This document shows positions 5,716-47,253 of a stretch of DNA of 59,942 bases, piece by piece. The notes under the pieces were generated by a model. The model made no database searches. It worked only from the letters and a program-made list of their open reading frames with translations, and was not told where the DNA came from. A program made the position numbers and the translations under genes. The first letter of the stretch is position 1, and each line of letters opens with the position of its first letter. Origin of the DNA: Minisyncoccota bacterium (GTDB lineage Bacteria > Patescibacteriota > Minisyncoccia > UBA6257 > UBA9933); the NCBI GenBank assembly GCA_036444215.1, contig JAZGAA010000006.1:1-59942 (forward strand), given 5' to 3'.

Positions 5716-6969
5716 ATGGTTAATTTTTTGGATTTAAGTAAAAAAATAATTCCCCGACCAATTTTTAATTTTTTTCAACCGGTTTACCATTGGTTGATGG
5801 CGTTGGCCGGCGCTATTATTTATCGATTCCCATCGTCTAAAATTTTTGTTTTAGGAACTACCGGAACCAAAGGAAAATCAACAACTTTAGAGTTAATAAA
5901 CACAATTCTGGAAGCTGATAAAAAGCGAACCGCTTTACTTTCTTCTATTCGGATAAAAATCGGTGAGAAAAGCAAAAAAAATTATTCCGGCAACACAATG
6001 CCAGGTAGGTTTTTTATTCAGAGGTTTTTACGAAAAGCCGTTAATACCAACTGCCAATATGCTTTGATTGAAGTAACTTCACAAGGGATTCTCCAATATC
6101 GTCATCGGTTTATTAATTGGCAAGCGGCAATTTTCACTAATTTAGCGCCGGAACATATTGAAGCCCACGGCTCTTTTGAAAAATATCGTAAAGCTAAAAC
6201 AGATTTTTTTACATATATTAAAAACAAACTGTTTTTCATTAACAAAGATGACGCTAATGCTAAGTATTTTACCGAGGCTGCCCAAGACGGTAAAATTGTT
6301 TTATATTCAAAAAACTCCCTAAACTCTAAACCCTATACCCTAAACCCTAATTTAATTGGCGATTTTAATAAAGAAAATATCGCTGCTGCAATTGCTTTTA
6401 TCAAATCACAAAATATTAGTGAGACAATTATCAAAAAAGCCATTGAAAATTTTCAAGGCGTTCCCGGTAGAATGGAATTTATTCCCGCCTTCGTTAAAAC
6501 TTCGGCGGGCAAGCAGCAGCCGTTTACCGTAGTAATAGATTATGCTCACACTCCCGATAGCCTTAAAAATGTTTATGAGACTATTAGAAACTCAAAACTA
6601 ATATGCGTTCTTGGTTCAGCCGGCGGAGGACGAGATAAATGGAAACGGCCGGAAATGGGCAAAATTGCCGCGGAATATTGCGATAAAATCATTCTGACCA
6701 ATGAAGATCCTTATGACGAGAAGCCATTGGAAATTTTGAGTCAGATTGAAGTTGGTATTTGTATTAATCCACGCACATTAGCGCGAAGGCCCGCTTTTAT
6801 TTACAAAATATTAAATAGAAAAGAAGCAATTAAAAAAGCGATTTCTTTAGCAAAACCAAACGATACGGTAATTATCACCGGCAAAGGATGTGAGTCATTT
6901 ATTCATATTGCTGGCGGAAAAAAAATACCGTGGAACGAAAGAAAAATAGTTGAAGAAATAATAAAATGA
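5716..6969 (+). CDS. Mur ligase family protein, MurE-like (short, lacks the N-terminal domain)
   Basis: GTTGTKGKSTT P-loop and DYAHTPDSL motif typical of MurE. Carries two in-frame repeat insertions (6313-6351, 6484-6520). Confidence 0.6.
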   Translation: MVNFLDLSKKIIPRPIFNFFQPVYHWLMALAGAIIYRFPSSKIFVLGTTGTKGKSTTLELINTILEADKKRTALLSSIRIKIGEKSKKNYSGNTMPGRFFIQRFLRKAVNTNCQYALIEVTSQGILQYRHRFINWQAAIFTNLAPEHIEAHGSFEKYRKAKTDFFTYIKNKLFFINKDDANAKYFTEAAQDGKIVLYSKNSLNSKPYTLNPNLIGDFNKENIAAAIAFIKSQNISETIIKKAIENFQGVPGRMEFIPAFVKTSAGKQQPFTVVIDYAHTPDSLKNVYETIRNSKLICVLGSAGGGRDKWKRPEMGKIAAEYCDKIILTNEDPYDEKPLEILSQIEVGICINPRTLARRPAFIYKILNRKEAIKKAISLAKPNDTVIITGKGCESFIHIAGGKKIPWNERKIVEEIIK

Positions 6970-7427
6970 AATACGAAATTCTTTCTCATCCAGCCGAGTT
7001 ACGGCTAAGGATTTACGGAAAAACAATTGAAGAATTGTTTATTAACGCTGTTGAGGCGATGGCGCAAATTTTATCAACCAAAACCAAAAACTTAAAACTC
7101 CCGCCTTCGCCGAGGCTTCGGCGGGCAGGTAAAACTAAAAGCCAAAAACTAAAAACTAAAATCAAAATTCAGTCAGTTGATGTCAACGCTCTTTTGGTAG
7201 ATTTTTTGAATGAAATTTTAGCGAAATCGCAAATTAATAAGACGGTGTATTTAGTATCCAGTATTAAGCACCAAGCATTAAACAAGAAAGAATATCAACT
7301 AGAAGCAGAATTAACATCATATCCAATAAAAAGATTTGATGAAGACATAAAAGCCGTAACTTATCAGGATGTTGACATTAAACTAAAAGCTAATAGATGG
7401 CAGACAGAATTAGTATTTGACATTTAA
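6966..7427 (+). CDS. archease (RtcB activator)
   Basis: N-terminus MKYEILSHPAELRLRIYGKTIEELF and C-terminal KAVTYQDV are archease-like. Lies directly upstream of rtcB. Contains a repeat-derived insert (7100-7170). Confidence 0.8.
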   Translation: MKYEILSHPAELRLRIYGKTIEELFINAVEAMAQILSTKTKNLKLPPSPRLRRAGKTKSQKLKTKIKIQSVDVNALLVDFLNEILAKSQINKTVYLVSSIKHQALNKKEYQLEAELTSYPIKRFDEDIKAVTYQDVDIKLKANRWQTELVFDI

Positions 7428-8836: not shown

Positions 8837-8857
8837 TATATTGTATTAGATACGCAA

Positions 8858-9064
8858 CTAACGGAGTTCGCGAGAACGTTTTGCAATCGCATCGCGGATG
8901 AATTTCTGGTTCTGGTTGAGAATTTCAGGGCCCTTCTTTAAAAGTTCTCCGCAGACGCATTTTGTCGCTCCTATGGACGGATTTGGTATGCCACAATACT
9001 TACAAATCTTTCCTCCGATATCATCAAAAGTAAATTTCAGAGGTTTTTCTTTTGTTTTCAGCAT
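8858..9064 (-). CDS. small zinc-ribbon protein (hypothetical)
   Basis: 68 aa with CKYC...CVC cysteine pairs. No overlap with better-supported genes. Confidence 0.45.
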   Translation of the reverse strand: MLKTKEKPLKFTFDDIGGKICKYCGIPNPSIGATKCVCGELLKKGPEILNQNQKFIRDAIAKRSRELR

Positions 9065-10629: not shown

Positions 10630-11211
10630 ATGAATGATATTTGTCATACAACTTTTAAATACAAAATCTGCGTTTCCGGCGCAGCTGAAACCGAGCATTG
10701 CGGTCCGAATGCCAATAAATTGGCTGAAGAATTAGGCAAAGAAATTGTTCGGCATGATGCGGTTTTGGTTGATGGCGCCACAACCGGTTTTCCTCTTTGG
10801 GCAGCCAAGGGTGCTAAAAGCGAAGGAGGTATTGTTATCGGGCTTTCGCCGGCAGCCACAGAAAAAGAACATATTCAGGATTATAAATTGCCGACCGACT
10901 ACCATGATTTAATTATTTATACAGGTTTTAATTATTCAGGAAGAAATCTTCTTTTAACAAGGTCAGCTGATGCGGTAATTGTCGGTTGCGGTCGTTTAGG
11001 AACGTTAAATGAATTCACCATTGCCTTTGAAGACAAAAAGCCAATTGGGGTTTTAGAGGGACCTTGGGAAACTGATGATTTAGTGAAAAAGATAATTGCT
11101 GAATCTTACCGCGGTCCGGGTAAAATAGTATATTCTTCAAACCCAAAGGAATTAGTGAAAAAAGTGATAGAATTAATTAAAAAAGAAAAAAGGTCGAACG
11201 GAAAAATATAA
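10630..11211 (+). CDS. TIGR00725/LOG-like (SLOG) Rossmann-fold nucleotide-binding protein
   Basis: ICVSGAA...DGATTG...GCGRLGTLNEF pattern. ATG at 10630, just after the upstream stop, preferred over 10606. Confidence 0.6.
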   Translation: MNDICHTTFKYKICVSGAAETEHCGPNANKLAEELGKEIVRHDAVLVDGATTGFPLWAAKGAKSEGGIVIGLSPAATEKEHIQDYKLPTDYHDLIIYTGFNYSGRNLLLTRSADAVIVGCGRLGTLNEFTIAFEDKKPIGVLEGPWETDDLVKKIIAESYRGPGKIVYSSNPKELVKKVIELIKKEKRSNGKI

Positions 11212-14772: not shown

Positions 14773-15015
14773 TTATACGAAATGCTTTTTGATAAAAGCT
14801 CTGCCACTTCCTGATTTGAGGTATTTTTCAAATTCGTATGCTTTGTATTTGTCTTGAAAAACTATATAAGTGATTAATTTTACTGGTAATATATTTGCTG
14901 TTGCTGGGACATATCCCTTATTATGTCTAATTATTCTATCTTCTAAATTATTTGTACAGCCAATATATGGTTTACCGCCGTTGCACATAAGAATATAAAC
15001 ATAGTAATTTTCCAT
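14773..15015 (-). CDS. GIY-YIG nuclease family protein (small stand-alone URI domain)
   Basis: YYVYILMCNGGKPYIGCTNNLEDRIIRHN motif. Start moved to the ATG at 15015 because the longer ORF runs through GC repeats into tRNA-Ser. Confidence 0.75.
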   Translation of the reverse strand: MENYYVYILMCNGGKPYIGCTNNLEDRIIRHNKGYVPATANILPVKLITYIVFQDKYKAYEFEKYLKSGSGRAFIKKHFV

Positions 15016-15115
15016 ATAGAAGGCGGACTGCGTCCGTGCTCCGACGCTGAAGCTTTGGTGCAAGAGTCTGAAACCCGGCGAAGCCCGACTTCGCCAAGGC
15101 TTCGTCGGGTGAAAG

Positions 15116-15201
15116 CGGAGGAGGTGGGATTTGAACCCACGAGCCCCTTTCGAAGCCATGGTTTAGCAAACCATTCCGTTAGACCACTCCGGCACTCCTC
15201 C
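15116..15201 (-). tRNA. tRNA-Ser(GCT)
   Basis: Hand fold: acceptor GGAGGAG/CTCCTCC, anticodon loop TTGCTAA, long variable arm, T-arm GTGGG-TTCAAAT-CCCAC. Confidence 0.85.
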
Positions 15202-15535: not shown

Positions 15536-16993
15536 ATGAGCAAAAGTGAAAACGATAAAAAGTTAATAACTCGGTCCCCGATTATTGCAGTAATGGGACA
15601 TGTTGACCATGGCAAGTCCAGTTTGCTTGATTTTATCCGTAAAACCAATGTTGTGGCTAAAGAAGCAGGCGGTATTACTCAATCAATTGGAGCATATGAG
15701 ATTTCTCATAATAATAAGAGAATTACTTTTATTGATACCCCGGGGCACGAGGCGTTTTCAAAAATGCGGGCACGCGGCGCCAAAGTGGCTGATTTGGCAA
15801 TTTTAGTAGTGGCGGCTGATGACGGCGTTAAACCACAAACCAAAGAAGTTATTGATATTCTTAAGGAAATCCAAACACCATTCGTGGTGGCAGTCAGTAA
15901 AATAGATAAGCCCGGCGCTGATGTTGAAAAAGTAAAACAAGAATTGATGCAGGTAGAGGTTTTATTGGAAGGTTACGGCGGTAATATCAGCTGGCAGGCA
16001 ATTTCTTCAAAAAGCGGCCAAGGCATAGATGAATTACTGGATTTAATTTTATTAGCTGCCGAGATGGAGGAATTAACTTATAATCCCGAAGTTGAAGCTA
16101 GCGGGATAATCATTGAATCAAAAATAGACAGCCGGCGCGGCGTAACGGCAACTACCATTATTAAAAATGGCACTTTAAAAATTGGTGATGAAATTTTTAC
16201 TCAAAGCGTTAAAGGAAGAATTAAAATTTTAGAAAATTTCTTAGGTGAAAAAGTTGCTCAATTAACGCCTTCAAGCCCGGCTTTAATTTTGGGTTTTGAA
16301 ACCCTGCCGCAAATCGGAGAGCAGTTCTCCGTTAGTGAAATTTTGGCACAAGAGGATAAATTAATACAAAAACCTAAACCCAAAATTACTGAAGCTGAAT
16401 CCGAACTGCCAACTATTAAACTTATTCTCATGGCTGACGTCTCCGGTTCATTAGAAGCGCTTTTTGAAGTTATTAAAAACTTGCCAACCGATGAAATAAA
16501 AATTGAAATTATTAATAAATCTATCGGCGATATTACTGACGGAAATGTTAAATTAGCTCAATCAACCAAGTCAGTTATCATAGGTTTTAAAGTTAGGGTT
16601 GATAAAGCAGCTGAAAATTTAGCCCGAAGCCAGGAAATAAAAATTATCACTTCGGAAGTTATTTATGAGTTAGTTAAAAGCATTGAGGAAGAGATTGCCG
16701 GTTTGGGATTGCCGAAAATTACCGGCGATTTAGAAATTCTGGCAACTTTCAGCAAAAAAGGTAAAAAACAGCTGATTGGCGGAAAGGTAGTTAGCGGAAT
16801 AATAAAAAATAAATCAAAACTGGAAATAAAGCGGGGCGAGGAAATTATCGGCCAAGGCAAAATTTTAAATCTCCAGCACCAGAAACAAGATGTTGTTCAA
16901 GTTGAAGAAGGCAAGGAATGCGGGGTTATGTTTGAATCAGATATTATAATTGAAAAGGGAGACCACCTTATCTACTATGTTTCATCGTCCTGA
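15536..16993 (+). CDS. infB: translation initiation factor IF-2 (short form lacking the N-terminal region)
   Basis: [17 protein letters not shown] and SKID GTPase motifs; 485 aa. Confidence 0.93.
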
Positions 16994-17312
16994 GCGCGTA
17001 TCCAGTTTAATACAGGAAGAATTAGGTAAGATTATCTCGCGGGAAGTTGAATTTCCGGAATGTTTGGTTACTATTACTTCGGTTGATGTTGATAATAAAT
17101 TAGACCGGGCGGTTGTAAATTTCAGCGTTATTCCTTCAAAAAATTCTGAAGAGGTTCTTAAAATATTAAAAAAGGCAGCCGGACATTTACAGCATCTTTT
17201 ACTAGAAAAACTTAGCATTAAGCCATTGCCCAGAATATTTTTTGAAATTGATTACGGCTCTGAAAAAGCCGCCGAGGTTGAAAAATTACTAATGGAAGAA
17301 GATAATAAATAG
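16977..17312 (+). CDS. rbfA: ribosome-binding factor A
   Basis: [18 protein letters not shown]-terminus. ATG at 16977 overlaps the infB end. Conserved infB-rbfA order. Confidence 0.85.
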   Translation: MFHRPERVSSLIQEELGKIISREVEFPECLVTITSVDVDNKLDRAVVNFSVIPSKNSEEVLKILKKAAGHLQHLLLEKLSIKPLPRIFFEIDYGSEKAAEVEKLLMEEDNK

Positions 17313-18160: not shown

Positions 18161-18955
18161 ATGCTAATTGATACTCATTGTCATCTTGATTTTAAGGATT
18201 TTGATGAAGACAGAGATGATGTAATTAAGCGTGCCTACGACGCCGGAGTTCAAAAAATAATCAACGTTGGCTGCGATTTAGAACGGTCAAAAAGTTCAGT
18301 TGCTTTGGCGGATAAATATAATTATATTTACGCGTCCGTCGGCTTGCATCCACAAGAAGCAAATAATACTGACGAAAAAATCTTCAGCGAAATAGAAGAA
18401 TTAGCTAAACATCCCAAAACAGTGGCAATCGGAGAGTGTGGATTGGAATACAGCGGTCCAGCTAGCCATAATTTAAATAAAGAAAAACAAAAAGAAGTTT
18501 TTTTACGTCATTTGGAATTAAGCCAACAAATCCAAAAACCCGTTATTATTCACTGCCGTTCGGCTTATGAGGATTTGATTGAAATCCTAAAAACAAATAG
18601 CAGTTGTGGAGTTGTTCATTTCTTTAGCGGTAAGTTAGCTCAAGTAAAACAACTTTTAGATTTAAGATTCTTAATATCTTTCACCGGCGTAATTACATTT
18701 AGCCGTGATTATGACAGGGTTATTCAATCTATTCCTTTAGACAGAATTTTGATTGAAACTGACGCGCCTTTTGTTGCGCCTGTTCCGTATCGTGGCACCC
18801 CACTGGAAAGCCCTCGGCTTCCAACGGGACAAGCAAGAAACGAACCAGCTTATGTAATTGAAATAGCCAAAAAAATCGCTGAAATCAAGAATATATCTTT
18901 TGAAAAAATAGCTGAACAAACCGCTAAAAACGCCATTAAACTTTTCTCAATATAG
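18161..18955 (+). CDS. tatD: TatD family metal-dependent hydrolase/DNase
   Basis: IDTHCHLD, GECGLEY, IHCR, ETDAPF and NEPAYV motifs. Has an in-frame GC-rich insert at 18797-18836. Confidence 0.9.
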   Translation: MLIDTHCHLDFKDFDEDRDDVIKRAYDAGVQKIINVGCDLERSKSSVALADKYNYIYASVGLHPQEANNTDEKIFSEIEELAKHPKTVAIGECGLEYSGPASHNLNKEKQKEVFLRHLELSQQIQKPVIIHCRSAYEDLIEILKTNSSCGVVHFFSGKLAQVKQLLDLRFLISFTGVITFSRDYDRVIQSIPLDRILIETDAPFVAPVPYRGTPLESPRLPTGQARNEPAYVIEIAKKIAEIKNISFEKIAEQTAKNAIKLFSI

Positions 18956-25775: not shown

Positions 25776-25854
25776 GCGAATTTTTCCTACGAGTAAAGCG
25801 AGTAGTTGAAAAATTCAGCGCCTCGCCGAATCCGCCTACGGCGGAGAAGGCGGG

Positions 25855-26292
25855 CTACTTAATTATTTTTCTAATCTCTCGTTCTACTTCTCGTTTTTTT
25901 ATCAATTCTCGCTTATCTCTCTTTTTTCGGCTCTTTGCCAATCCAATTTCTATCTTAATTCTGCGATTCTTAGTATAAACCTTTAGAGGCACCAAAGTCA
26001 ATCCTTTTTCCTGGGTCCTGCCGATTAGATTTTTAATCTCAGATGTTTGAAGCAGCAGCCGGCGGGTCCTTTTGGAATCATAATCTTCGGGCATATTCTT
26101 TGGTTGATAAGGAGGTATGTCTGCATTAAGAAGCCAGGCCTGATTATCCCGGATAACAGCATAAGACCCGGCAAGATTTATTCTGCCGGTTTTTATGGAC
26201 TTAACTTCAAATCCTTTTAATTCAATCCCTGCCTCAAGCGTTTCTAAAATTTGATAGTCAAAATATGCGCGTTTATTGGTAGTAATAGCCAT
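25855..26292 (-). CDS. smpB: SsrA-binding protein SmpB
   Basis: NKRAYFDYQILETLEAGIELKGFEVKS and basic C-terminal tail. Confidence 0.95.
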   Translation of the reverse strand: MAITTNKRAYFDYQILETLEAGIELKGFEVKSIKTGRINLAGSYAVIRDNQAWLLNADIPPYQPKNMPEDYDSKRTRRLLLQTSEIKNLIGRTQEKGLTLVPLKVYTKNRRIKIEIGLAKSRKKRDKRELIKKREVEREIRKIIK

Positions 26293-26305: not shown

Positions 26306-27973
26306 ATGAATACAATGGTTAAAGTAAAAATTATTAATTATCTTAAAGAAGTTGTTAAAGAACCTGTGTCAATTGAAGTTTTCGTGCCGGATAATGAAAA
26401 ATTCGGGCATTATTCCACAAATGTCGCTTTGAAATTGGCAAAATTACGCAAGCAGAATTCGATGACTGTTGCTGAAGAGATTAAAAGCGTACTATCACGC
26501 GTAGTAGTAAAAGATTTTTTTAAAAAAATTGAGATTGCTCCTCCGGGATTTATAAATTTCTGGCTGTCAGAAAAAACTCTACAAGATAAAATAAAAGAAA
26601 TTTTGAAGAAAGAAAAGAAATACGGCCAACAACTAAAAGCTAAAAGCTCAAAGCTAAAAGCTATTAGCATTGAATTTATTTCCGCTAATCCTACTGGACC
26701 TTTGACTATTGGCAATGGCAGGGGAGGTTTTTTGGGTGATGCATTGGCAAATATTTTGAAATTTCAAGGAAATAAAGTAGTAAAGGAATATTATATTAAT
26801 GACGCTAAAGCAAGCACTCAGATTAGAGAATTAGGGAAAACGGCGGTTGGAATCGGTAAAAGCTACAAAACAAAAGATTTAGAATTAAAAATCAAAAAAT
26901 TAGGGCCAAAGAAAGCCAAAAATTACAGCGACGCTGGATATTTGCTTGCGAAAATAATCCAAGAAGATAACAAGAAGTTTATTGAAAATAAATTAAAAAT
27001 AAAATTTGACAAATGGTTCAGCGAAGAAAACCTGTATAAAAGTGGAGCTGTTGAAAAGTTGCTGGGAGAATTAAAAAAGAAAAATTTAATTTACAAAAAA
27101 GACGACGCTATATGGTTTAAATCAAAACAATTTGGCGATAACGAAGACAGGGTTTTGGTACGGCAACCCCGCGTAGCGGGGCAAGCAGGAGAACCGACAT
27201 ATTTTTTGCCGGATCTTGCTTATCATTTAAATAAATTCAAAATTCGTAAATTTAACAAAGTTATAGATATTTGGGGAGCTGACCACCATGGTTACAGTCC
27301 TCGGCTTAAAGCCGGTCTTAAAGCTTTTGGTATAGCTGATGAAAAACTCAAAATTATCATTAGCCAATTAGTCCGTTTAATTAAAAAAGGCAAAGAAACG
27401 AAAATGTCAAAAAGAAAAGGAGAGTATGTGAGCTTGGAGGAATTAATAGATGAGGTTGGTTTGGACGCGGCGCGATTTTTCTTTTTAATGTATTCGCCGA
27501 ATACTCATATGGATTTTGATTTGGATTTGGCAAAAGAGAAATCATTAGAGAACCCGGTTTATTATGTGCAATACGCTGCCGTAAGATGCGATAGCATACT
27601 CAAAAAACCCAAATTCCAAAGCCCAAATTCCAAACAAATTCCAAAGCCCAAATTCCAAAACCTAAAATTATTAAACACAAAAGAGGATTTAAATTTAATA
27701 CGGATGTTGGTGAGGTTTCCGGAAATTATTGAAGAAGCAGCGCAAAATTACAGCCCGCAAATTTTAGTGCGATATTCTTTGGATTTAGCGCGGCAATTCC
27801 ATAATTTTTACGAAAAAGAACACATCATCGCGGACCTGCGCGGACTTAACGCGGACCAATACAGACAAAGTATGGATTTTATGTTTGCGCGTTTGGCTTT
27901 AATTCAGGCAACATTAGTAATTTTTAAAAATACATTCAACCTTTTGGGCATCACATTGCCGAAGAAAATGTAG
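26306..27973 (+). CDS. argS: arginyl-tRNA synthetase
   Basis: SANPTGPLTIGNGRG (HIGH region), DHHGY, MSKRKG (KMSK). ATG at 26306 or 26315 preferred over the 26276 start that overlaps smpB. Carries four in-frame repeat insertions. Confidence 0.9.
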   Translation: MNTMVKVKIINYLKEVVKEPVSIEVFVPDNEKFGHYSTNVALKLAKLRKQNSMTVAEEIKSVLSRVVVKDFFKKIEIAPPGFINFWLSEKTLQDKIKEILKKEKKYGQQLKAKSSKLKAISIEFISANPTGPLTIGNGRGGFLGDALANILKFQGNKVVKEYYINDAKASTQIRELGKTAVGIGKSYKTKDLELKIKKLGPKKAKNYSDAGYLLAKIIQEDNKKFIENKLKIKFDKWFSEENLYKSGAVEKLLGELKKKNLIYKKDDAIWFKSKQFGDNEDRVLVRQPRVAGQAGEPTYFLPDLAYHLNKFKIRKFNKVIDIWGADHHGYSPRLKAGLKAFGIADEKLKIIISQLVRLIKKGKETKMSKRKGEYVSLEELIDEVGLDAARFFFLMYSPNTHMDFDLDLAKEKSLENPVYYVQYAAVRCDSILKKPKFQSPNSKQIPKPKFQNLKLLNTKEDLNLIRMLVRFPEIIEEAAQNYSPQILVRYSLDLARQFHNFYEKEHIIADLRGLNADQYRQSMDFMFARLALIQATLVIFKNTFNLLGITLPKKM

Positions 27974-28002: not shown

Positions 28003-31000
28003 ATGGAAGAAAAAATTTTAAAATTTTGGCAGGAAAATCAAATCTTTGAGAAATCCGTTGAGAAAGATGCGCCTCGCGGTGATTTTGTTTTTTATGACGG
28101 TCCGCCTTTTGCCACAGGAAGTCCTCATTACGGCCATATTTTGGCAAGCATTATAAAAGATGTCATTCCAAGATACCAAACAATGAAAGGTAAAAGAGTT
28201 CCGCGTAAATGGGGTTGGGATTGTCATGGTTTGCCAATTGAGAATTTAATTGAGAAAAATCTAAATCTTCAGAGCAAAAAAGACATTGAAGAATACGGAA
28301 TTGAAAAATTCAATAAAGCAGCTCAAGAAAGCGTTCTTCAATACGCTGATGAATGGAAAAAAATTATTTCAAGAATAGGAAGGTGGGTTGATATGGAAAG
28401 AGATTATAGAACAATGGATTGGAAATATACTGAATCGGTTTGGTGGGTTTTTAAAAAACTTTACGATAAAGGGCTTATTTACGAGGGATATAAATCAATG
28501 CATATTTGTCCGCGCTGCGAAACTACTTTATCTAACTTTGAGATTACACAGAATTATCAGGACATTAAAGATATATCAGCTACGGTTAAGTTTGAGCTGG
28601 AAGACGAGCCGGGTACTTTCATTCTGGCTTGGACAACTACGCCATGGACTCTGCTGGGGAACGTCGCTTTAGCTGTTAATCCTGATATAGAGTATAGAAA
28701 AGTTAAATCAGGAGAAAGTTTTTTTATCGTTGCCGAAAAACGATTAGCGGCATTATTTCCATTTAAAGGAGAAACTGTGCTACATAAATTTTTTAAAGGC
28801 AAAGAACTTGTTGGCAAAAAATACAAACCACTTTTTGATTATTACACAAAAGATAAAGATTTAGAGAATCGTGAGAACGGCTGGAAAATTTACAGCGCGG
28901 ATTTCGTAACAATTGAAGAAGGAACTGGCGTTGTTCATATTGCTCCTGCTTTTGGTGAAGATGATATGAATTTGGGGCAAAAAGAAAAATTGCCTTTTAT
29001 TCAGCATGTTGCAATGGATGGAAAATTTAAGAAGGAGGTTAGGGAATTCGTTGGCCTTTCAGTAAAGCCAAAATCTGAACATCAATCAACTGACGTAGAA
29101 ATTATTAAATACCTTGCTAAAAATAATAAACTTTTCTCTAAAGAATCAATAACTCATTCCTACCCGTTTTGCTGGCGGTGTGACACTCCGTTGTTAAATT
29201 ACGCAGCAAACTCATGGTTTGTAGAAGTAGATAAGATTAAAAAGAAACTAATAAAGAATAATAAGAAGATAAATTGGGTGCCATCGCATTTAAAATACGG
29301 TCGTTTTGGTAAATGGCTTGAAAACGCCCGCGACTGGGCTATTTCTCGTTCAAGGTATTGGGGCGCTCCTTTGTCTATTTGGAAATGTGAAGAATGTAAA
29401 AAAATAAAAACAATCGGCTCAATTAACGATTTAAAAAAAGAATCCAAAAAATCCAAAAACAGATATTTTGTAATACGTCATGGAGAATCAGAAAGTAATG
29501 CTCAAAATATTGTTAGTTCAAAATTAGAAACCAGCTCTAAACATCCGCTTACGGAAAAAGGAAAAAAAGAAGTCAAAGAAACAGCTAAAAAATTAAAAAG
29601 CGAAAATATTGATTTGATTTTTTCTTCTGATTTTACTCGTACTAAAGAAACTGCTGAAATTGCGGCAGATAATTTGGGTATTAGTAAGGATAAAATAATT
29701 TTTGATAAACGCCTTCGCGAAGTAAATACCGGCATTTTTGACGGCAAAAAACCTGAAGAATATAAAGCTTATTTTTCCTCTCTTGAAGAAAAATTTTTCA
29801 AAACTCCTCCTGAAGGCGAGAATTTAATGGAACTCAAGAATAGGGTGAGCGAATTTTTGTACGTTCTTGAGAGTAAATATTCAGATAAGAATATTTTAAT
29901 TATTAGCCATGAGTATCCGATTTGGCTTTTATTTGCCGGTGCTAACGGGTTCAATAGCAAAGAGTCAGTTGAAATCAGAAAAGACAAACCCGATTTTGTT
30001 AAAACAGGTGAAATAAGAAAATTAGATTTTGTTCCTTTACCGCATGATAAGAATTATGTTTTAGATTTACACAGGCCGCATATTGATAATATTGAGTTTC
30101 AATGTTCTTGCGGCGGAGCTATGAACCGCGTACCAGAAGTTTTTGACTGCTGGTTTGAGTCCGGTTCAATGCCTTACGGACAGGCGCATTATCCTTTTGA
30201 AAACAAAAAAGAATTTGAGAAAAATTTCCCGGCGGAATTTATTGCAGAAGGAATTGATCAAACAAGGGGTTGGTTTTATACATTACTTGTTCTTTCAACT
30301 GCTTTATTTAATAAACCAGCTTATAAAAACGTAATTGCGAATGGAATTATTTTGGCGGAAGATGGTCAAAAAATGAGTAAGCGTTTAAATAATTATCCGG
30401 ATCCAACAGAAATTATTAATAAATATGGAGCTGATGCGCTTCGTTATTATCTTCTTTCTTCACCGGCAGTGCGTGGCGAGAGTTTGAATTTTTCCGAAAA
30501 AGGAGTTGATGAAATTAATAAAAAAGTGGTTTCAAAATTAAGAAATGTTTTATCTTTTTATAAGATGTATGGTTTGGGACTAAAAACCGAAAACCAAAAA
30601 CTAAAAGCTAATAATGTTTTAGATAAATGGATTTTAGCGAAATTTAATATTTTAACAAAAGACGTTTCAGAAACACTTGATAATTATGAGTTAGACAGGG
30701 CAGTTAGGCCGATAGGGAATTTTGTTGATGATTTGTCTAATTGGTATGTGAGGCGGTCGCGAGAAAGGTTTAAGAGCGAAAGCCAAGATAAAGATAACGC
30801 TTCTGCGACGTTGAGTTATATTTTAATTGGGTTTTCTAAAATAATCGCGCCATTTATGCCGTTTGTTGCGGAGGAAATATACCAGGAATTTACAATAGAG
30901 AAAGGGAGCGTGCATTTAGAAGAGTGGCCTCAAGGCAAAGAAACATTAAAAGAAGACAAAAAGATTTTAGATGAAATGAAAGAGGCAAGAGAAAATATCG

Positions 31001-31449
31001 TATCTATTGCTATGGAGCAAAGGCAAAAAGCGGACATTGGAGTGAGGCAAGTGCTAAGCGTTTTTAATACAACATCTTCTATTACAAATACTGATATTCT
31101 CGAAACTGTTTTAAAAGAAATTAACGTAAAAGAAATAAAAACTAACCAAAAAGAAAATAAATTAGACATAATTATTACCCCTGAATTAAAAAATGAAGGC
31201 GTTGTTCGCGAATTTGTCCGCAAAGTTCAGGATTTGCGCAAAAAAGCCGGCTATCAACCAAAAGACAAAATTTATTTATGGATTGAAACCTTAAGCGAGA
31301 CAGAAAGCATATTAAACAAGAACATTGATAAATTCAAAAAAGATATTGGCGCTAAATCTATTGAGTTTAGGCGAACTGAAAAATTTGACGCAGAATTAGA
31401 AAGTAAAATTAACAGCGAAAAAATCTGGCTCGGAATTAAGAAAATATAA
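28003..31449 (+). CDS. ileS: isoleucyl-tRNA synthetase (type 2/eukaryote-like) with an inserted histidine-phosphatase domain
   Basis: PPFATGSPHYGH (HIGH), editing-domain WTTTPWTL, GIDQTRGWFYTL, KMSKRL. Residues ~485-685 carry RHGES...SSDFTRTKETA...ISHE histidine-phosphatase motifs. Confidence 0.92.
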   Translation: MEEKILKFWQENQIFEKSVEKDAPRGDFVFYDGPPFATGSPHYGHILASIIKDVIPRYQTMKGKRVPRKWGWDCHGLPIENLIEKNLNLQSKKDIEEYGIEKFNKAAQESVLQYADEWKKIISRIGRWVDMERDYRTMDWKYTESVWWVFKKLYDKGLIYEGYKSMHICPRCETTLSNFEITQNYQDIKDISATVKFELEDEPGTFILAWTTTPWTLLGNVALAVNPDIEYRKVKSGESFFIVAEKRLAALFPFKGETVLHKFFKGKELVGKKYKPLFDYYTKDKDLENRENGWKIYSADFVTIEEGTGVVHIAPAFGEDDMNLGQKEKLPFIQHVAMDGKFKKEVREFVGLSVKPKSEHQSTDVEIIKYLAKNNKLFSKESITHSYPFCWRCDTPLLNYAANSWFVEVDKIKKKLIKNNKKINWVPSHLKYGRFGKWLENARDWAISRSRYWGAPLSIWKCEECKKIKTIGSINDLKKESKKSKNRYFVIRHGESESNAQNIVSSKLETSSKHPLTEKGKKEVKETAKKLKSENIDLIFSSDFTRTKETAEIAADNLGISKDKIIFDKRLREVNTGIFDGKKPEEYKAYFSSLEEKFFKTPPEGENLMELKNRVSEFLYVLESKYSDKNILIISHEYPIWLLFAGANGFNSKESVEIRKDKPDFVKTGEIRKLDFVPLPHDKNYVLDLHRPHIDNIEFQCSCGGAMNRVPEVFDCWFESGSMPYGQAHYPFENKKEFEKNFPAEFIAEGIDQTRGWFYTLLVLSTALFNKPAYKNVIANGIILAEDGQKMSKRLNNYPDPTEIINKYGADALRYYLLSSPAVRGESLNFSEKGVDEINKKVVSKLRNVLSFYKMYGLGLKTENQKLKANNVLDKWILAKFNILTKDVSETLDNYELDRAVRPIGNFVDDLSNWYVRRSRERFKSESQDKDNASATLSYILIGFSKIIAPFMPFVAEEIYQEFTIEKGSVHLEEWPQGKETLKEDKKILDEMKEARENIVSIAMEQRQKADIGVRQVLSVFNTTSSITNTDILETVLKEINVKEIKTNQKENKLDIIITPELKNEGVVREFVRKVQDLRKKAGYQPKDKIYLWIETLSETESILNKNIDKFKKDIGAKSIEFRRTEKFDAELESKINSEKIWLGIKKI

Positions 31450-36559: not shown

Positions 36560-37798
36560 ATGAAAATTACAGACGTTAATATTAAAATCATTTCAGATTC
36601 TCGCGGCAAAGAAACATTGGAAGCGGAATTAAAAACCGCGGATATTTCTGTATCCGCAAGCGTGCCAGCCGGCAAAAGCACTGGAACGCATGAGGCGTTT
36701 GTTTTAGAGCCAAAAAACGCTCTAAAAAAATTTGAAGAAATAAAAAGCAAAGTTTTAGGACAGGATTTTAACAAACAGGAAGATTTTGATAATTTTTTAA
36801 TTTCTTTAGATGGCACTTCTAATAAACAAAATCTTGGAGGTAATTTGATTTTAGCTTTGTCTTTGTCTTGGGCAAGATTGAAAGCAAAAAATGAAGGGAA
36901 AGAATTATTTCAATATATAAATAAGGAACTAGGAACTAGTAATCAGGAAATAGGAACGCCGAGGCCGGTTTTTAACGTTATTAACGGTGGAGTGCACGCT
37001 ACCCATCCAAAGTCAAAGTTAGAATTTCAGGAATTCCAAGTAATACCAAGCGTAGAAGATTTTGGCATTGCTTTAAGTGTTGGCAGGGAATTTTACCGCA
37101 AACTTCAAACATTGTTGGAAAATAAATTTGGCAAGGAAAATATTTCTTTGGGTGATGAAGCCGGCTTTTCAGCTCCATTCAAAAATAATGAAGAAGCAAT
37201 TGAAGTTTTGGCTGAATTAATAGATAAGCATAGTTATCCTTTAAGGATTGGATTGGATATAGCAGCTTCACAATTTTACAAATCAGGCGGATTTCTTAGA
37301 GAATCAGGGTATGTTGTTGACGGCAAGAAACACTCAGTAGAAGAACTAAAAGATTTATATTTAAAATTGATTGAAACGTATAATATTTTATCAATTGAAG
37401 ACCCTTTTTATGAGGAATCATTTGATTCATTCGCTTCGCTCACCGCGGACTCACGCGGACTGGACGCGGATAGACGCGGACTATTAGTGATAACGGACGA
37501 TTTAACAACCACTAATCCAGAACGTTTAAAAACAGCAATTAATAAAAAATCCGGCAACGCAATTTTAATAAAATTAAATCAGATAGGAACATTAACAGAA
37601 ACTCTAAAAGTTGTTAAACTGGCTTATGAGAATAACTGGCAGGCAATAGTTTCGCACAGGAGCGGCGAAACAATGGATGATTTTATTGCTGATTTGGCTG
37701 TTGGTATTAACGCATGGGGCATTAAAGCCGGCGCGCCGGCAAAACCGGAAAGATTAATAAAATACGAACGAGTTTTGGAGATAGTTGATAAAAAATAA
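36560..37798 (+). CDS. eno: enolase (divergent)
   Basis: IISDSRGKETLE, SVPAGKSTGTHEA, NVINGG, GDEAGF, SIEDPF, DDLTTTNP, IKLNQIGTLTE, SHRSGET. Start at the ATG preceded by aaaaagga. Confidence 0.9.
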   Translation: MKITDVNIKIISDSRGKETLEAELKTADISVSASVPAGKSTGTHEAFVLEPKNALKKFEEIKSKVLGQDFNKQEDFDNFLISLDGTSNKQNLGGNLILALSLSWARLKAKNEGKELFQYINKELGTSNQEIGTPRPVFNVINGGVHATHPKSKLEFQEFQVIPSVEDFGIALSVGREFYRKLQTLLENKFGKENISLGDEAGFSAPFKNNEEAIEVLAELIDKHSYPLRIGLDIAASQFYKSGGFLRESGYVVDGKKHSVEELKDLYLKLIETYNILSIEDPFYEESFDSFASLTADSRGLDADRRGLLVITDDLTTTNPERLKTAINKKSGNAILIKLNQIGTLTETLKVVKLAYENNWQAIVSHRSGETMDDFIADLAVGINAWGIKAGAPAKPERLIKYERVLEIVDKK

Positions 37799-39074: not shown

Positions 39075-39119
39075 CTTTGTCGGGCTTTTGCCCGACGAAG
39101 CGGGCTTCGTCCAGCGAAG

Positions 39120-39192
39120 TCGGGGCACCCGGACTCGAACCGGGAATCGTCCGCTCCCAAAGCGGAAATGTTAGCCATTACACCATGCCCCG
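39120..39192 (-). tRNA. tRNA-Pro(TGG)
   Basis: Acceptor CGGGGCA/TGCCCCG, anticodon loop TTTGGGA, T-arm CCCGG-TTCGAGT-CCGGG. Confidence 0.85.
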
Positions 39193-40963: not shown

Positions 40964-41023
40964 ATCCCTGTTTAAATCCCTGTTTTAATCCTTGAATTAA
41001 ATACGTATTTTAATACGTATTTC

Positions 41024-41044
41024 TGCTACCACAAGTGGTAGCAG
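41024..41044. repeat. 21-bp palindromic repeat tgctaccacaagtggtagcag (left copy)
   Basis: Identical 21-mer recurs at 41762-41782. The core gctaccac-aa-gtggtagc is self-complementary. Confidence 0.9.
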
Positions 41045-41141
41045 GATTTTATACTTTAAAAAGTTGACAAAACAGCAAGAATTTTGTTATTTTTGGTTTA
41101 GGCACCTTAAAAATGACAATGATATAAATAAGGAGGAAATT

Positions 41142-41381
41142 ATGGGAAAAAGAAGAAGGGCAAAAAGAGAAATTATAAAAGATAAAATCCTGAAATTTTT
41201 AGGTAATTATCCCGAGAGATTACATACTCTTGGTAAAGTAGATAGGGCGGTAGGAGATTCTATTTCTCTTGAATTTCTTGAATCTTTAGAGAGGGAGGGT
41301 TTAATTGAAATTAGACCTTTTCCACAAGGAAAAGAAATATTTATAGGATTACCTGAACAACTTTTACAGAAAGGAGCTTAA
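41142..41381 (+). CDS. small winged-helix-like DNA-binding protein (hypothetical)
   Basis: 79 aa starting at the ATG behind SD aaggagga. Basic N-terminus, then KILKFLGNYPERLHTLGKVDRAVG...LESLEREGLIEI, a wHTH-like pattern. Confidence 0.5.
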   Translation: MGKRRRAKREIIKDKILKFLGNYPERLHTLGKVDRAVGDSISLEFLESLEREGLIEIRPFPQGKEIFIGLPEQLLQKGA

Positions 41382-41382
41382 A

Positions 41383-41661
41383 ATGGAAAAAACTGCATTT
41401 GAAAATCTATCAGTATTGGTTTTTTTGAATGAGAAGCACTTAGTGCCAATAAAAATTCAATTCGGGGAACATGGAATTGGAATTTTAGCCGCACCCGGTA
41501 AAGGCGAGATGGGAGAAAAAGAATCTATTGAGTTAATGGAGGCTCTTCATAAAGAATTAGATAAGCTTGAGGTAAGCCATACGGATTTTTGCAGAAAGAT
41601 GGCAGACGGTACTCGTCGTACTGATTTTGTAGTTATTCCTATAATTAAGAAAGAGAAGTAA
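41383..41661 (+). CDS. hypothetical protein
   Basis: 92 aa, SD aaaggag. Translationally coupled to the upstream gene (1-nt gap). Confidence 0.5.
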   Translation: MEKTAFENLSVLVFLNEKHLVPIKIQFGEHGIGILAAPGKGEMGEKESIELMEALHKELDKLEVSHTDFCRKMADGTRRTDFVVIPIIKKEK

Positions 41662-41744: not shown

Positions 41745-41782
41745 ACTACCACTTGTGGTAGTGCTACCACAAGTGGTAGCAG
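41745..41782. repeat. two abutting copies of the ctaccac-NN-gtggtag palindrome (right copies)
   Basis: actaccacttgtggtagt followed by tgctaccacaagtggtagcag. Overlaps the -35 region of a TATAAT (41798-41803) upstream of the acylphosphatase gene. Confidence 0.9.
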
Positions 41783-41843: not shown

Positions 41844-42125
41844 ATGTCTTGCTATCAAATAAAAATTTCAGGGCTGGTTCAAGGAGTTTTCCTTAGATAT
41901 TCAGCCAAACAAAAAGCTGAAAAACTTGGTTTGGTTGGGTACGCGAAAAATTTAGAAAATGGTTCAGTTGAAATTGTTGTTTGTCCCGCTCAGCGGGATT
42001 GTGGTGATACCGCTATCAAGGAATTTATAAATTGGTGCCGTATTGGCCCTGATTTAGCAAGAGTAGATAATATAAAAGTAGATGAAATATCTTTTCGAGA
42101 ATATAATAATTTCCAGGTTTTATAA
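41844..42125 (+). CDS. acylphosphatase
   Basis: ISGLVQGVFLRY and GYAKNLENGSVEIV motifs; 93 aa. Confidence 0.8.
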   Translation: MSCYQIKISGLVQGVFLRYSAKQKAEKLGLVGYAKNLENGSVEIVVCPAQRDCGDTAIKEFINWCRIGPDLARVDNIKVDEISFREYNNFQVL

Positions 42126-43917: not shown

Positions 43918-43956
<39 letters not shown>

Positions 43957-44126
43957 GGCCGGCGAGGCCGTTGAAATAGAACCTGAAACCATATGCTTAC
44001 AAGGAGACGGAGCCCGCAAGGGTGACGTCGTGCCTATTGAAGAATGAGCCAACGAGTTTATGTATATCGCTAGTTTAAATCCTACGGGATGAAAGCGTAG
44101 GGAAACCGAGTGTTAAAAGCGCGTAT

Positions 44127-44295
44127 GCCAGTGCTTCGCACTGGAAATTCCAAATTCCAAATCTCAAATCACAAATAAATCTCAAATCCCAATTTTCAAA
44201 ATTCCAAACACGTTTTGGTCATTTGAATTTTGGTTATTGATGCTTGTTTGTTATTTGGTGCTTGTTATTTGGTGCTTCCAATGCGCAGTATTGGT
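44127..44295 (+). repeat. 169-nt hairpin insertion at the 23S helix-25 position (IVS-like), copy A
   Basis: Interrupts ...GAGTGTTAAAAGCGCGTAT | TGGCGGTATGTGTAAGACCCGAA. Terminal mini-hairpins gccagtgcttcgcactgg and ccaatgcgcagtattgg. A/C-rich arm faces a G/T-rich arm. Confidence 0.85.
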
Positions 44296-47141: not shown

Positions 47142-47253
47142 AACAGGCTGGTGAAGTCCGAGAGTTCACATCGACGACTTCGCTCGGCACCTCGATGTCG
47201 GCTCACCACATCCCGGGGGTGGAGAAGCTCCCAAGGGTTTGGCTGTTCGCCAA

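Follow-up and report, generated by a model that had tools for sequence, protein, structure and literature searches.

The window, which is the whole 59,942-nt stretch of DNA analysed, contains short GC-rich hairpins in protein-coding genes, beside tRNA genes and in a spacer. One lies within murE (6484..6513, + strand) and another within the archease gene (7100..7129, +). A third occupies positions 15084-15109 (element strand +) of a GC-rich hairpin leader (15016..15114, −). This leader is anchored by tRNA-Ser(GCT) (15115..15201, −) and extends from the 3′ end of the tRNA to the start codon of a gene encoding a single-domain GIY-YIG nuclease (14776..15015, −). A fourth hairpin is located at tRNA-Pro (39079..39124, −; pattern match at 39091-39124) and a fifth, degenerate one in the smpB-ssrA spacer (25814..25858, −). 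Further hairpins occur in argS (27167..27184, +), tatD (18797..18835, +) and the acylphosphatase gene (41984..41998, +). The original prediction held all of these to be one kind of palindrome, and every sequence that it cited was present at its position.

The first five sites, spanning 6484-6513, 7100-7129, 15084-15109, 39091-39124 and 25814-25858, are copies of one dispersed, structured hairpin repeat of ∼26 nt followed by a 4-nt directional tail. The 6-bp outer stem, CCCGNC/GN′CGGG, encloses an invariant, symmetric TTC/TTC internal loop, derived from a direct repeat of CTTCG, and a short inner stem-loop that varies in sequence and length. The tail is CARG, counted as CAAG in 17 cases and as CAGG in 14. 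The canonical 30-mer corresponds to 10 codons and is stop-free in all six frames. In an alignment of 30 copies (A1), the 4 bases upstream of the hairpin were not conserved and included no GTAG or GTGG tetranucleotide. GTA itself appeared solely in the loops of two related hairpins.

The motif was more common than composition predicts. The pattern CCCGNCTTCG-N(4-30)-CTTCGNCGGG matched the window four times (6484-6509+, 7100-7125+, 15084-15109+ and 39091-39124−) and had no match in 100 dinucleotide-preserving shuffles. A generalized scan for arm/TTC/inner stem/TTC/arm returned the same four sites versus a shuffle mean of 0.03. A covariance model of the family detected the four exact-pattern sites with E-values of 2.5e-8 to 8e-5 and added the degenerate copy in the smpB-ssrA spacer. 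Position 5 of the outer stem was Watson-Crick, with four pair types, in 90 of 102 structured copies from metagenome and viral contigs, and was paired in 36 of the 129 chance coding matches that served as the comparison set. The inner pair was C-G in 22 cases, T-A in 14 and mismatched in 3. In alignment A1, 98.9% of cells were paired versus 28-54% when the partner columns were slid, and the observed covariation score was reached by none of 500 shuffles.

The structural assignment is founded on this covariation in both stems and not on folding energy, which was unremarkable for single copies (z −1 to −2.7) and did not discriminate elements. Such ordinary energies would be expected of chance composition or of an assembly or sequencing artefact, as would the over-representation of GC-rich k-mers through codon usage: words such as GCCGGC dominated the enrichment over mononucleotide expectation, a count that was uninformative. 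This explanation, to which we attach almost no probability, is refuted by the lack of shuffle matches to the exact pattern, by the covariation in both stems and by independent assemblies that carry substituted copies at orthologous sites (L009, L334 and L336). Rfam yielded no family match to the hairpins at either the gathering or a permissive threshold, and literature searches returned nothing relevant for the literal sequence words and nothing specific on palindromes in CPR.

The copy in murE comprises 30 nt, or 10 codons (CCCGCCTTCGTTAAAACTTCGGCGGGCAAG; E = 9.7e-8), and encodes PAFVKTSAGK. Of 80 orthologs, 78 lack it, the closest one (L001) among them; it recurred at the same codon in a distant ortholog, L009, where all three differences from the window copy were synonymous. 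Local identity around the L009 insert was not raised (18th locally, 35th overall), which argues against a larger recombination patch. The archease copy (30 nt, CCCGCCTTCGCCGAGGCTTCGGCGGGCAGG; E = 2.5e-8) encodes PPSPRLRRAG and lies in a loop that exceeds its counterpart in relatives and in PDB 4n2p by 12-17 residues. Many contigs from metagenomes and viruses contain its 26-mer in identical form. The reading frame of the shared DNA differs between murE and archease, and family copies lie in both orientations relative to host genes and transcription, as well as at non-coding sites. These features indicate an origin at the DNA level, as originally proposed. In the related locus L008, the copy swaps ∼10 native codons with length unchanged, for which gene conversion fits better than insertion. 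The MurE palindrome of L043 resembles the inverted repeat around that genome's GIY-YIG gene at 14 of 16 positions with a 2-nt gap, a sequence likeness that is suggestive only.

The argS insert (CCCCGCGTAGCGGGGCAA) consists of 18 nt, encodes PRVAGQ in frame and was absent from both the sister genome L334 and PDB 3fnr. It shares a GGGCAAGCAG tail with the murE copy; this exact 10-mer occurred twice, and with one mismatch allowed its count was not above chance. A possible CAA repeat was seen at the ArgRS insert only, with no consistent target-site duplication (TSD) across sites. The tatD insert is older and partly decayed: 39 nt (13 codons, TPLESPRLPTGQA) replace one native codon, so that the gene is 36 nt (12 codons) longer overall and the PYRG|RNEP motif is split. 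Its stem is unlike that of the family and its tail (GGGACAAGCA) is similar. The insert was absent from 115 of 119 homologs and was also found in P0124 (a sister, decayed), P0183 and P0240; seven of eight nucleotide changes between the window copy and distant copies were synonymous. In the AlphaFold model of TatD (mean pLDDT 90.9), residues 212-224, corresponding to the insert, were the sole segment with pLDDT <50. The insert is accordingly predicted to be a disordered, tolerated loop, consistent with the original prediction. Finally, the acylphosphatase hairpin (TCCCGCTCAGCGGGA) sits in a variable loop and represents no clean insertion relative to solved homologs. Its 15-mer is identical in L210/L211, where a T-run follows.

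The family covariance model did not detect the ArgRS, TatD or acylphosphatase hairpins even at E ≤ 10, and these have only the 3′ tail GGG(A)CAAGCA in common with the family. A single family for all sites was rejected on this ground; the proposed unity holds for MurE, archease, tRNA-Ser, tRNA-Pro and smpB-ssrA. The ArgRS and TatD hairpins are true lineage-specific in-frame inserts, and membership of the argS insert in the family is uncertain. In-frame insertion was thus borne out for MurE, archease, ArgRS and TatD, and not for acylphosphatase. Copies inside genes persist only when their length is a multiple of three, they are free of stops and they lie in a tolerated loop.

That distant copies at one site differ almost exclusively by synonymous changes would also be expected if the segments were protein features under selection, either ancestral loops or convergent peptides, and not inserted DNA. 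This possibility is very improbable, being largely refuted by the sporadic distribution: the nearest homologs are among the MurE and TatD proteins that lack the segments, and orthologs from unrelated phyla with the same peptide were found only sporadically and non-ancestrally (2 of 81 MurE, counting the window, and 4 of 120 TatD). The occurrence of the same DNA in different frames and in non-coding DNA, and the predicted disorder of the TatD insert, also argue against it. The earlier claim that protein-level selection played no part is therefore sound for the origin of the inserts and not for their subsequent history, in which changes were synonymous.

Sequence comparisons show the copies to be recent additions to the host lineage (uncultured Patescibacteria/CPR) because they are missing from most MurE and TatD homologs and from argS and the smpB-ssrA spacer of the sister genome, and because tRNA trailers of this type are rare. 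The claim of lineage specificity was thereby upheld: a sister genome lacks the insert at MurE, ArgRS and the smpB-ssrA spacer. The five copies in the 60-kb window amount to ∼1 per 12 kb, versus ∼10 diverged copies in 1.16 Mb of relatives (∼1 per 100 kb). Family 26-mers were present in contigs whose GC content ranged over 36-72%, as well as in viral ones, and further family copies lie inside long ORFs of low-GC contigs. Exact-protein look-ups of the window proteins led to no contig other than the source. The cross-phylum spread of the family and the GIY-YIG gene beside the tRNA-Ser copy were both absent from the original prediction.

At tRNA-Pro (E = 8e-5), the 5′ arm of the copy, CCCGAC, overlaps the 3′ acceptor end of the tRNA. 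A second hairpin, GTCGGGC-AAAA-GCCCGAC, comes after the copy, with no GIY-YIG gene beyond it. The smpB-ssrA copy (14 bits, E = 0.8) reads CCCGCC-TTC-TCCGCC-GTA-GGCGGA-TTC-GGCGAG, with one mismatch in the outer stem, a 6-bp inner stem and a GTA loop. The orthologous spacer of L334 is AT-rich and lacks the copy. Among the 64 tRNAs of the window and 80 related loci, two had GC-rich CTTCG-type trailers, and the idea that hairpin trailers are a general feature of Parcubacteria tRNAs was rejected on this count.

These sites raise the possibility that the hairpins are functional RNA, involved in tRNA 3′-trailer processing or termination or in regulation of the GIY-YIG leader, with the in-gene copies being incidental. 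Consistent with such a role, the 5′ arm of the first hairpin in relatives is the 3′ end of the tRNA, with which the outer stem covaries, and simple CCCGNC-TTCG-GNCGGG hairpins with a T-run in L002 and L032 look like terminators. However, the intrinsic-terminator test found none of the five window copies to be directly followed by a T-run, trailers of this kind are lacking from most tRNAs of the clade, and the family has no Rfam counterpart. Copies within genes and between them are found in both orientations with respect to transcription, and the insertions into genes are left unexplained. We consider a primary function as RNA to be improbable.

The nuclease gene beside tRNA-Ser encodes an 80-aa, UPF0213-like protein (Pfam PF01541, E = 1.8e-14) whose best solved relatives are the UPF0213 proteins PDB 1zg2 and 1ywl. 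Its homologs share 68-79% identity across CPR phyla and 47-48% in Alphaproteobacteria-like contigs. The window nuclease shares 36% identity with an SsnA-like protein. SsnA itself, a single-domain GIY-YIG nuclease of 94 aa, binds hairpin repeats in the form of ssDNA and cleaves them, and the same repeats flank its gene (PMC11893778). The order tRNA, hairpin leader, GIY-YIG was found in all nine distinct contexts examined in Patescibacteria and Alphaproteobacteria: the window, WWE3 L202-207, L208, L210, Roizmanbacteria L341, L188, L191, Pseudolabrys L339 and L337. In L337, only a remnant of the tRNA 3′ end is left before the hairpin and the GIY-YIG gene. The hairpin was upstream of the gene in each of the nine, and no downstream copy was seen. 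We infer that the family has its home in the leader that separates a tRNA gene from a small single-domain GIY-YIG gene. By analogy with SsnA, the nuclease encoded at 14776-15015 is probably the protein partner of the hairpin family, for which it is the candidate.

Co-occurrence of nuclease and repeat was assessed on loci of ≤20 kb. The MurE relatives with a GC-rich or palindromic insert at this site (L009, L034 and L043) accounted for three of only four loci bearing a GIY-YIG gene (Fisher p ∼5e-5, by our own calculation), and in L336 a tatD gene with the same insert adjoins a GIY-YIG gene. Evidence against a nuclease partner comes from the structured metagenome copies, 66 of 68 of which lie on contigs, usually short ones, that are devoid of a GIY-YIG gene, and from the viral loci, none of which has one beside the copy. 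Moreover, the tRNA-leader-GIY-YIG arrangement could be a conserved operon with an RNA-structure leader. SsnA-type genes with NTS-like hairpins, which belong to a different GIY-YIG subfamily, occur in the related loci L336, L051 and L192.

The hairpins might instead constitute a classical REP/REPIN or MITE that is mobilized in trans by a RAYT or an IS200/IS605-like HUH enzyme, the GIY-YIG gene being an unrelated neighbour of the tRNA. The repeat is indeed a short GC-rich hairpin with covarying stems, dispersed in both orientations. Dispersed, short GC-rich hairpins with covarying stems are general REP behaviour. The discussion of PMC11893778 describes REPs likewise. Against this explanation, which we regard as unlikely, the family lacks the 5′ GTAG/GTGG tetranucleotide, and its copies, 26-30 nt long, stand singly instead of as doublets. 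The window was found to encode neither a transposase nor a reverse transcriptase, and no RAYT was seen in the 62.8-kb contig and no transposase next to a copy in any related locus examined; the hairpin is coupled to a GIY-YIG leader in all nine contexts. The label REP given in the original prediction is likewise at odds with copies that are not extragenic, and the label MITE gained little support, as no clear TIR or TSD and no parent IS was seen.

A different possibility is that the hairpin acts like a DNA uptake signal or a motif of biased gene conversion, such that naturally competent cells preferentially take up or retain fragments bearing it and recombine them at conserved sites. The presence of the same insert at the same codon of distant orthologs, inside the most conserved motifs, would then reflect homology arms, and the length-neutral replacement of native codons in L008 would be readily accommodated. 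In addition, NTS repeats modulate transformation in Neisseria (PMC11893778). By contrast, the density of the motif is low, the family is common to 36-72% GC organisms and phage contigs and so is not lineage-specific, and most in-gene cases are clean insertions and not gradual mutation toward the motif. On these grounds, an uptake or conversion signal seems distinctly doubtful.

Overall, we favour, with moderate confidence, a proliferating REP/RPE-like hairpin repeat that is probably partnered with the GIY-YIG nuclease by analogy with SsnA/NTS. In such a system, the hairpin formed on single-stranded DNA would be the recognition site of the nuclease, as for SsnA/NTS and RAYT/REP. Within a genome, new copies would arise when a break initiated by the nuclease is repaired from, or joined to, DNA that bears a hairpin; between genomes, copies would travel through short-patch recombination at gene motifs of high conservation. 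After insertion, some copies would come under protein-level constraint and others would decay toward AT, a step that is partly shown by the copies described above. Points against the proposed partnership are that the hairpin is upstream only, versus both sides in NTS-ssnA-NTS; that neither a target-site duplication nor an excision footprint was discerned; that the replacement in L008 is length-neutral; and that the ArgRS and TatD inserts are not detectably of the same family.

A more far-reaching version, which we put forward tentatively as a possibility, is that the tRNA-anchored UPF0213-type GIY-YIG protein and the CTTCG-bulged hairpin form an undescribed nuclease/repeat pair, sister to SsnA/NTS. 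This pair would be homing-like without an intron or intein, would write translated inserts of 18-36 nt into the most conserved motifs of MurE, TatD, ArgRS and archease, and would cross phyla (Patescibacteria, Alphaproteobacteria and phages) by ssDNA cleavage and short-patch recombination. If true, the principle of a GIY-YIG ssDNA nuclease with a cognate hairpin would extend to another clade with a different, tRNA-anchored site, providing a new testable specificity for ssDNA tools. If the coupling is real, the surface loops of essential proteins in streamlined Patescibacteria are being reshaped by tiny DNA hairpins, selfish or domesticated, which would represent a second, lineage-independent case besides the Rickettsia palindromic elements (RPEs). 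Sporadic, identical micro-inserts at the same site of conserved motifs provide a tractable marker of short-patch horizontal exchange in uncultured bacteria. The repeats also account for the recurrent peptides PAFAKASAGK, PPSPRLRRAG and RLRRGFGGQ in predicted proteins and are probably behind some contig breaks.

Of the known systems, SsnA/NTS, whose Ssn-related motifs (SRM) occur in Neisseria and many other bacteria, shares with the window a small single-domain GIY-YIG gene physically coupled to a 20-50-nt hairpin repeat in an insertion-sequence-like architecture. The repeat is dispersed and has a non-palindromic orienting flank, represented here by the CARG tail of the 26-nt hairpin at five copies in 60 kb. 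The hairpin sequence in the window is unrelated to the NTS/SRM consensus CGTCATTCCCGCGMAVGCGGGAATCYRG, however, and the nuclease differs in its 80-aa length, its UPF0213 relatives and its low identity to the SsnA-like protein. The tRNA-anchored gene in the window lies downstream of its tRNA and has the repeat on its upstream side only. Essential genes also harbour copies of the window family; NTS copies, by comparison, are seldom found within genes (2% in N. meningitidis; Chenal et al. 2025, PMC11893778). Cleavage of the repeat as ssDNA, a property of SsnA, is a prediction for the window nuclease.

The RPEs are ∼150 bp, occur in-frame in unrelated housekeeping genes and encode translated peptides compatible with the protein fold (PMC10969869). 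The in-frame inserts in MurE, archease, ArgRS and TatD, which are predicted to be translated, resemble them. By contrast, the present inserts are 18-36 nt and lie in another host lineage, and the family is cross-phylum and coupled to a tRNA/GIY-YIG locus. With REP/REPIN-RAYT systems, the family has in common short GC-rich hairpins with covarying stems. REPs are thought to be recognized as ssDNA by a dedicated enzyme, the gene for which is flanked by the repeats. The family differs in its lack of GTAG, its intragenic copies in murE and archease, its singlet form and the absence of a HUH/RAYT gene from the 62.8-kb contig. As for MITEs, the stem arms could be read as TIRs; neither a consistent TSD nor a parent IS was found. 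DNA uptake sequences (DUS/USS) occur at ∼1 per kb and are lineage-specific, whereas the window motif is sparse and spans GC contents.

The mobile GC clusters and double-hairpin elements of fungal mitochondria are GC-rich palindromes of tens of bases in an AT-rich genome. They are intergenic, sometimes in-frame in genes, and the genomes also have free-standing GIY-YIG endonuclease genes. The likeness is one of general description, between organellar and bacterial DNA. Finally, homing elements, namely inteins and group I introns with GIY-YIG or LAGLIDADG endonucleases, likewise appear as sporadic, near-identical inserts at the same position within the most conserved motif of an essential gene. 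The inserts in the window differ in having neither splicing machinery nor an endonuclease ORF and are predicted simply to be translated.

Every quoted hairpin sequence was confirmed in the window, and the hairpin feature there is real. A composite pattern for the family, CCCGNCTTCG-N(4-30)-CTTCGNCGGG, matched the window four times and found no match in 100 dinucleotide-preserving shuffles. The matches lie in murE (6484-6509, + strand), in the archease gene (7100-7125, +), in the tRNA-Ser spacer (15084-15109, +) and across the 3' end of tRNA-Pro (39091-39124, −). A generalised scan, which required complementary arms (≥5 bp) around two TTC trinucleotides separated by a paired inner segment, returned the identical four sites, with a shuffle mean of 0.03. 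R1, a covariance model of the family, scored these sites at E = 2.5e-8 to 8e-5 and matched a degenerate fifth copy of the same architecture in the smpB-ssrA spacer (25814-25858, −). The original prediction had placed one hairpin type at all of the listed sites. This held for the five family sites. The hairpins in the ArgRS, TatD and acylphosphatase genes gave no R1 match even at E ≤ 10 and have only a GGG(A)CAAGCA tail in common with the family, a sharing that by itself is not beyond chance. We therefore distinguish one five-site family plus three GC-rich hairpins whose relationship to it is uncertain.

The family hairpin has a 6-bp outer stem, CCCGNC/GN'CGGG. TTC flanks the inner stem on each side as a direct CTTCG repeat, leaving a 3x3 pyrimidine internal loop; the inner stem is G-C-N...N'-G-C, and its loop, often TTCG, can be as short as 2 nt or as large as a whole second hairpin. 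The commonest tails are CAAG and CAGG. Covariation was assessed in 102 structured copies among the matches listed from public metagenome and viral contigs. The free position of the outer stem was Watson-Crick in 90 of these 102, with all four pair types represented, and was paired in 36 of the 129 long-spacer, codon-periodic chance matches listed from the same scans. Among the matches listed, the third inner pair was C-G in 22, T-A in 14 and mismatched in 3. According to pair counting in A1, an alignment of 30 family copies, 98.9% of cells were paired, versus 28-54% with the partner columns slid, and the covariation score was reached by none of 500 shuffles. An artefact is a very unlikely rival reading of the hairpins. 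Single-copy folding energies are ordinary, so the structural evidence is covariation, not stability. Overall, these data demonstrate that the hairpins are a structured, covarying repeat.

Alignment to orthologs supported the predicted lineage-specific inserts in MurE, archease, ArgRS and TatD, not in acylphosphatase, whose hairpin lies within a variable loop and does not qualify as an insertion. Among 80 orthologous MurE loci from species-representative genomes, 78 lack the 10-codon insert. The closest relative is one of these, at 71% identity by tblastn search and 78% across the alignment. At this site the window has GRMEFI-[PAFVKTSAGK]-QQPF, versus GRMEFI-Q(K/N)EPF in the others. In relatives and in PDB 4n2p, the loop that holds the 10-codon archease insert is shorter by 12-17 residues. 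In ArgRS, the window reads VLVRQPRVAGQAGEPTYF versus VLVR------STGEPTYF in the sister genome GCA_964398445.1 (locus L334), which is syntenic with the window at ~70% protein identity; PDB 3fnr agrees with the sister in lacking the insert. The TatD insert is a 12-residue segment between PYRG and RNEP that splits the motif and is missing from 115 of 119 homologs, the two closest (73% and 70% identity) included. In an AlphaFold model of TatD (74 homologs; mean pLDDT 90.9), the insert, residues 212-224, is the sole segment below 50.

Presence/absence differences from the sister genome, which the original prediction had proposed to examine, were borne out: the MurE and ArgRS insertions are window-specific, and the sister's smpB-ssrA spacer is AT-rich and has no hairpin. 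The window-versus-sister scan found five coding insertions of 3 or more residues that are specific to the window; two of them, the family copy in MurE and the hairpin in ArgRS, are GC-rich hairpins of the listed type. Canonical 30-mers with inner CCGAGG or CCAAGG are free of stop codons in all six frames; variants with inner TTAAAA, CTAAAG or CTGAAG contain one or two. Together, these data demonstrate recent, lineage-specific, in-frame, stop-free insertions in tolerated loops. The ArgRS gene also has a tandem duplication, QIPKPKFQN (27635-27661), and a GCGGAC x3 repeat encoding ADLR..ADQYRQ (27830-27868), both window-specific relative to the sister. The sister's NUDIX gene (L334, ~10780-10915) has a 45-aa insert that folds as a long imperfect hairpin and is missing from the window.

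Inserts recurred at the same site in distant relatives. L009, a Liptonbacteria locus whose MurE is 55% identical to that of the window, has the same insert peptide at the same codon; between the two copies there are three nucleotide differences, all of them synonymous, which weaken the hairpin in L009. Identity near the insert is not raised locally, which makes a large recombination patch unlikely. Two distant TatD homologs (46% and 44% identity) carry the insert as TPLESRRLPTGQA/V, and the sister genome has a version that is decayed and enriched in AT (ALVKGPQLLTGQA). Between the window and L336, the locus of one distant homolog, seven of eight nucleotide differences in this insert are synonymous, and the L336 copy is predicted to form the better hairpin. 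Selection at the protein level is a rival account of the inserts, and a very unlikely one. The MurE and TatD sites each lie inside the most conserved motif of the protein. The same-site inserts fit either of two scenarios. In one, copies from a shared mobile source entered a preferred site repeatedly and then came under protein-level constraint; in the other, lineages exchanged short patches, with the conserved flanks as homology arms. A third and less parsimonious scenario is an ancient insertion that was later lost precisely more than 100 times. In L008, another MurE locus, a family copy stands in place of about ten native codons with length unchanged, which looks like conversion rather than insertion.

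Beyond the window, structured family copies gave at least ~68 metagenome and at least 36 viral-contig matches. Among the matches listed, host contigs span 36% to 72% GC and the exact archease-copy 26-mer (CCCGCCTTCGCCGAGGCTTCGGCGGG) is present; the exact MurE-copy 26-mer, with inner TTAAAA, is present in the fetched locus L192. Copies in low-GC contigs are embedded in long ORFs, in one orientation or the other, or directly adjoin tRNA genes and overlap their acceptor-stem bases. In 1.16 Mb of related Parcubacteria the pattern had no exact match; about ten diverged copies were present, and in some of them the outer stem covaries, as in TCCTCC/GGAGGA. Given the wide spread elsewhere, these counts indicate that an old, widespread family has expanded locally in the window. 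These data establish a cross-phylum distribution, and we consider it very probable that the family is a proliferating hairpin repeat with a DNA-level origin. In L196, a copy (1584-1625) lies directly against the 5' end of a sequence resembling RNase P RNA (GGAGGAAAGTCCGGGCT), suggesting that family elements also adjoin stable-RNA genes other than tRNAs.

The window is ~36% GC and belongs to a 62.8-kb contig (GCA_044240385.1, JAZHCD014117065.1) of an uncultured Candidatus Paceibacterota bacterium (Parcubacteria, Patescibacteria/CPR). According to Pfam annotation, its called genes are housekeeping genes, with no transposase, integrase or reverse transcriptase among them; a rival explanation, that the repeat is a REP/MITE element, would have it mobilised by an unseen HUH transposase. 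The RNA genes are nine tRNA genes, ssrA and a 23S rRNA gene (43366-47575) with two group I introns (45659-45959 and 46348-46612; Rfam RF00028, 81 and 77 bits). The 1148-aa IleRS (28003-31449) has a histidine-phosphatase domain (PF00300) embedded in the synthetase, as does that of the sister genome (L334, 15178-17670). The enolase ORF contains a perfect 14-nt palindrome, GCCGGCGCGCCGGC (37727-37740), and a palindromic 10-mer, CCACAAGTGG, occurs three times (41023-41035, 41749-41776) around small unannotated ORFs at 41064-41661.

A GC-rich spacer with a family copy (15016-15114) separates tRNA-Ser(GCT) from the true start of a gene encoding an 80-aa, single-domain GIY-YIG nuclease (14776-15015, −; Pfam PF01541). 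The best solved relatives of this nuclease are the UPF0213 proteins 1zg2 and 1ywl. Homologs 68-79% identical occur across the CPR phyla Paceibacterota, Roizmanbacteria, WWE3 and Wildermuthbacteria, and those in high-GC contigs share 47-48% identity with the window protein; for one fetched homolog, L191, the named relatives (73-100% identical to it) are Alphaproteobacteria (Xanthobacteraceae, Pseudolabrys, Rhizomicrobium). We compared nine distinct GIY-YIG contexts, window included. In all nine, the gene lies 60-170 nt downstream of a same-strand tRNA or tRNA 3'-end remnant, the remnant being beside an integrase, and the spacer is made of family hairpins. The partner is tRNA-Ser in CPR contexts and tRNA-Val, tRNA-Leu or tRNA-Ala in proteobacterial-type contigs. 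In every context but the window, the 5' arm of the first spacer hairpin is the tRNA 3' end and covaries with it (CTCCG..CGGAG, CCAGCC..GGCTGG, CCAGGC..GCCTGG). The nine contexts demonstrate that the hairpin is obligatory in the tRNA/GIY-YIG leader. A leader or terminator function at the RNA level only is an unlikely rival reading.

Hairpin trailers are not a general tRNA feature of the clade, occurring at only 2 of 64 tRNAs. In L205, inverted family copies (2592-2631, +; 8838-8877, −) bracket a 6.2-kb segment containing tRNAs, the GIY-YIG gene and a restriction-modification system; L202 and L203 show the same bracketing. In WWE3 contigs that are otherwise identical, the flanks of the tRNA-Ser/GIY-YIG module differ. 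ARAGORN called a 'tRNA-Stop' (anticodon TTA) in two Parcubacteria loci (L031, 10237; L034, 9147-9220); that of L034 is directly 3' of the GIY-YIG gene, and upstream is a partial 5' duplicate broken by a hairpin.

A small GIY-YIG gene of any kind is present in only 4 of the 80 MurE loci (L009, L034, L043 and L051), and three of these (L009, L034 and L043) are exactly the relatives with a GC-rich or palindromic MurE-site insert (Fisher p ~5e-5, to be read with the caveats that many loci are <20 kb and that L006 and L031 differ in length there by short non-palindromic stretches). The L009 insert is that of the window, the L034 insert is a different hairpin ending in CGGGGCAAGCA, and the L043 insert is a 69-nt palindrome with perfect arms (10757-10825). 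The L043 GIY-YIG ORF lies inside a perfect 16-nt inverted repeat (CCCCCCACCACTTTTT; 16790-17095), to which the MurE palindrome arm is similar. The distant TatD of L336 (46% identity), with its window-type insert, is immediately 3' of a 94-aa GIY-YIG gene. This gene, like those of L051 and L192, is a member of a second subfamily whose flanking hairpins, GTCATTCCCGCG-NAA-GCGGGAATCCAG, are the NTS/SRM motif of the Neisseria SsnA system. The SsnA-like L336 gene lies between NTS-like hairpins (GTCATTCCCGCGGAAGCGGGAATCCAG; 1-480), the downstream one being translated as an N-terminal extension of the insert-bearing TatD.

In the mechanism we propose, the GIY-YIG nuclease would recognise the hairpin extruded on ssDNA, the breaks that it makes would be repaired with, or joined to, hairpin-bearing DNA, and in-gene survivors would be filtered by selection. 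That this nuclease is the partner of the family is a tentative assignment, for which we judge the chances nearly even. The combined statement, of a proliferating hairpin repeat probably partnered with a GIY-YIG nuclease, we consider somewhat favoured. The nuclease pairing and homing-like spread would be of clear interest if confirmed. We found no description of this hairpin or of the tRNA-linked GIY-YIG module in the searchable literature, itself incomplete.

The SsnA system was described in 2025: its single-domain GIY-YIG nuclease binds the hairpin as ssDNA and cuts just upstream; the SsnA gene is itself flanked by the repeat, and SsnA modulates natural transformation (PMC11893778). An uptake-signal-like drive is a further rival explanation for the present family. 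The logic of repeat and enzyme is similar in REP/RAYT and especially so in SsnA/NTS, to which the putative pairing here is closest. The hairpin sequence is unrelated to NTS, and the window nuclease shares only 36% identity with the SsnA-like L336 protein; the window nuclease and hairpin would be a parallel pair, outside the described one. Hairpin sequence, nuclease subfamily, tRNA anchoring and intragenic copies all set the present family apart. The in-gene behaviour is like that of Rickettsia palindromic elements, which are in-frame and translated within genes (PMC10969869), whereas the window inserts are about one-fifth their size.
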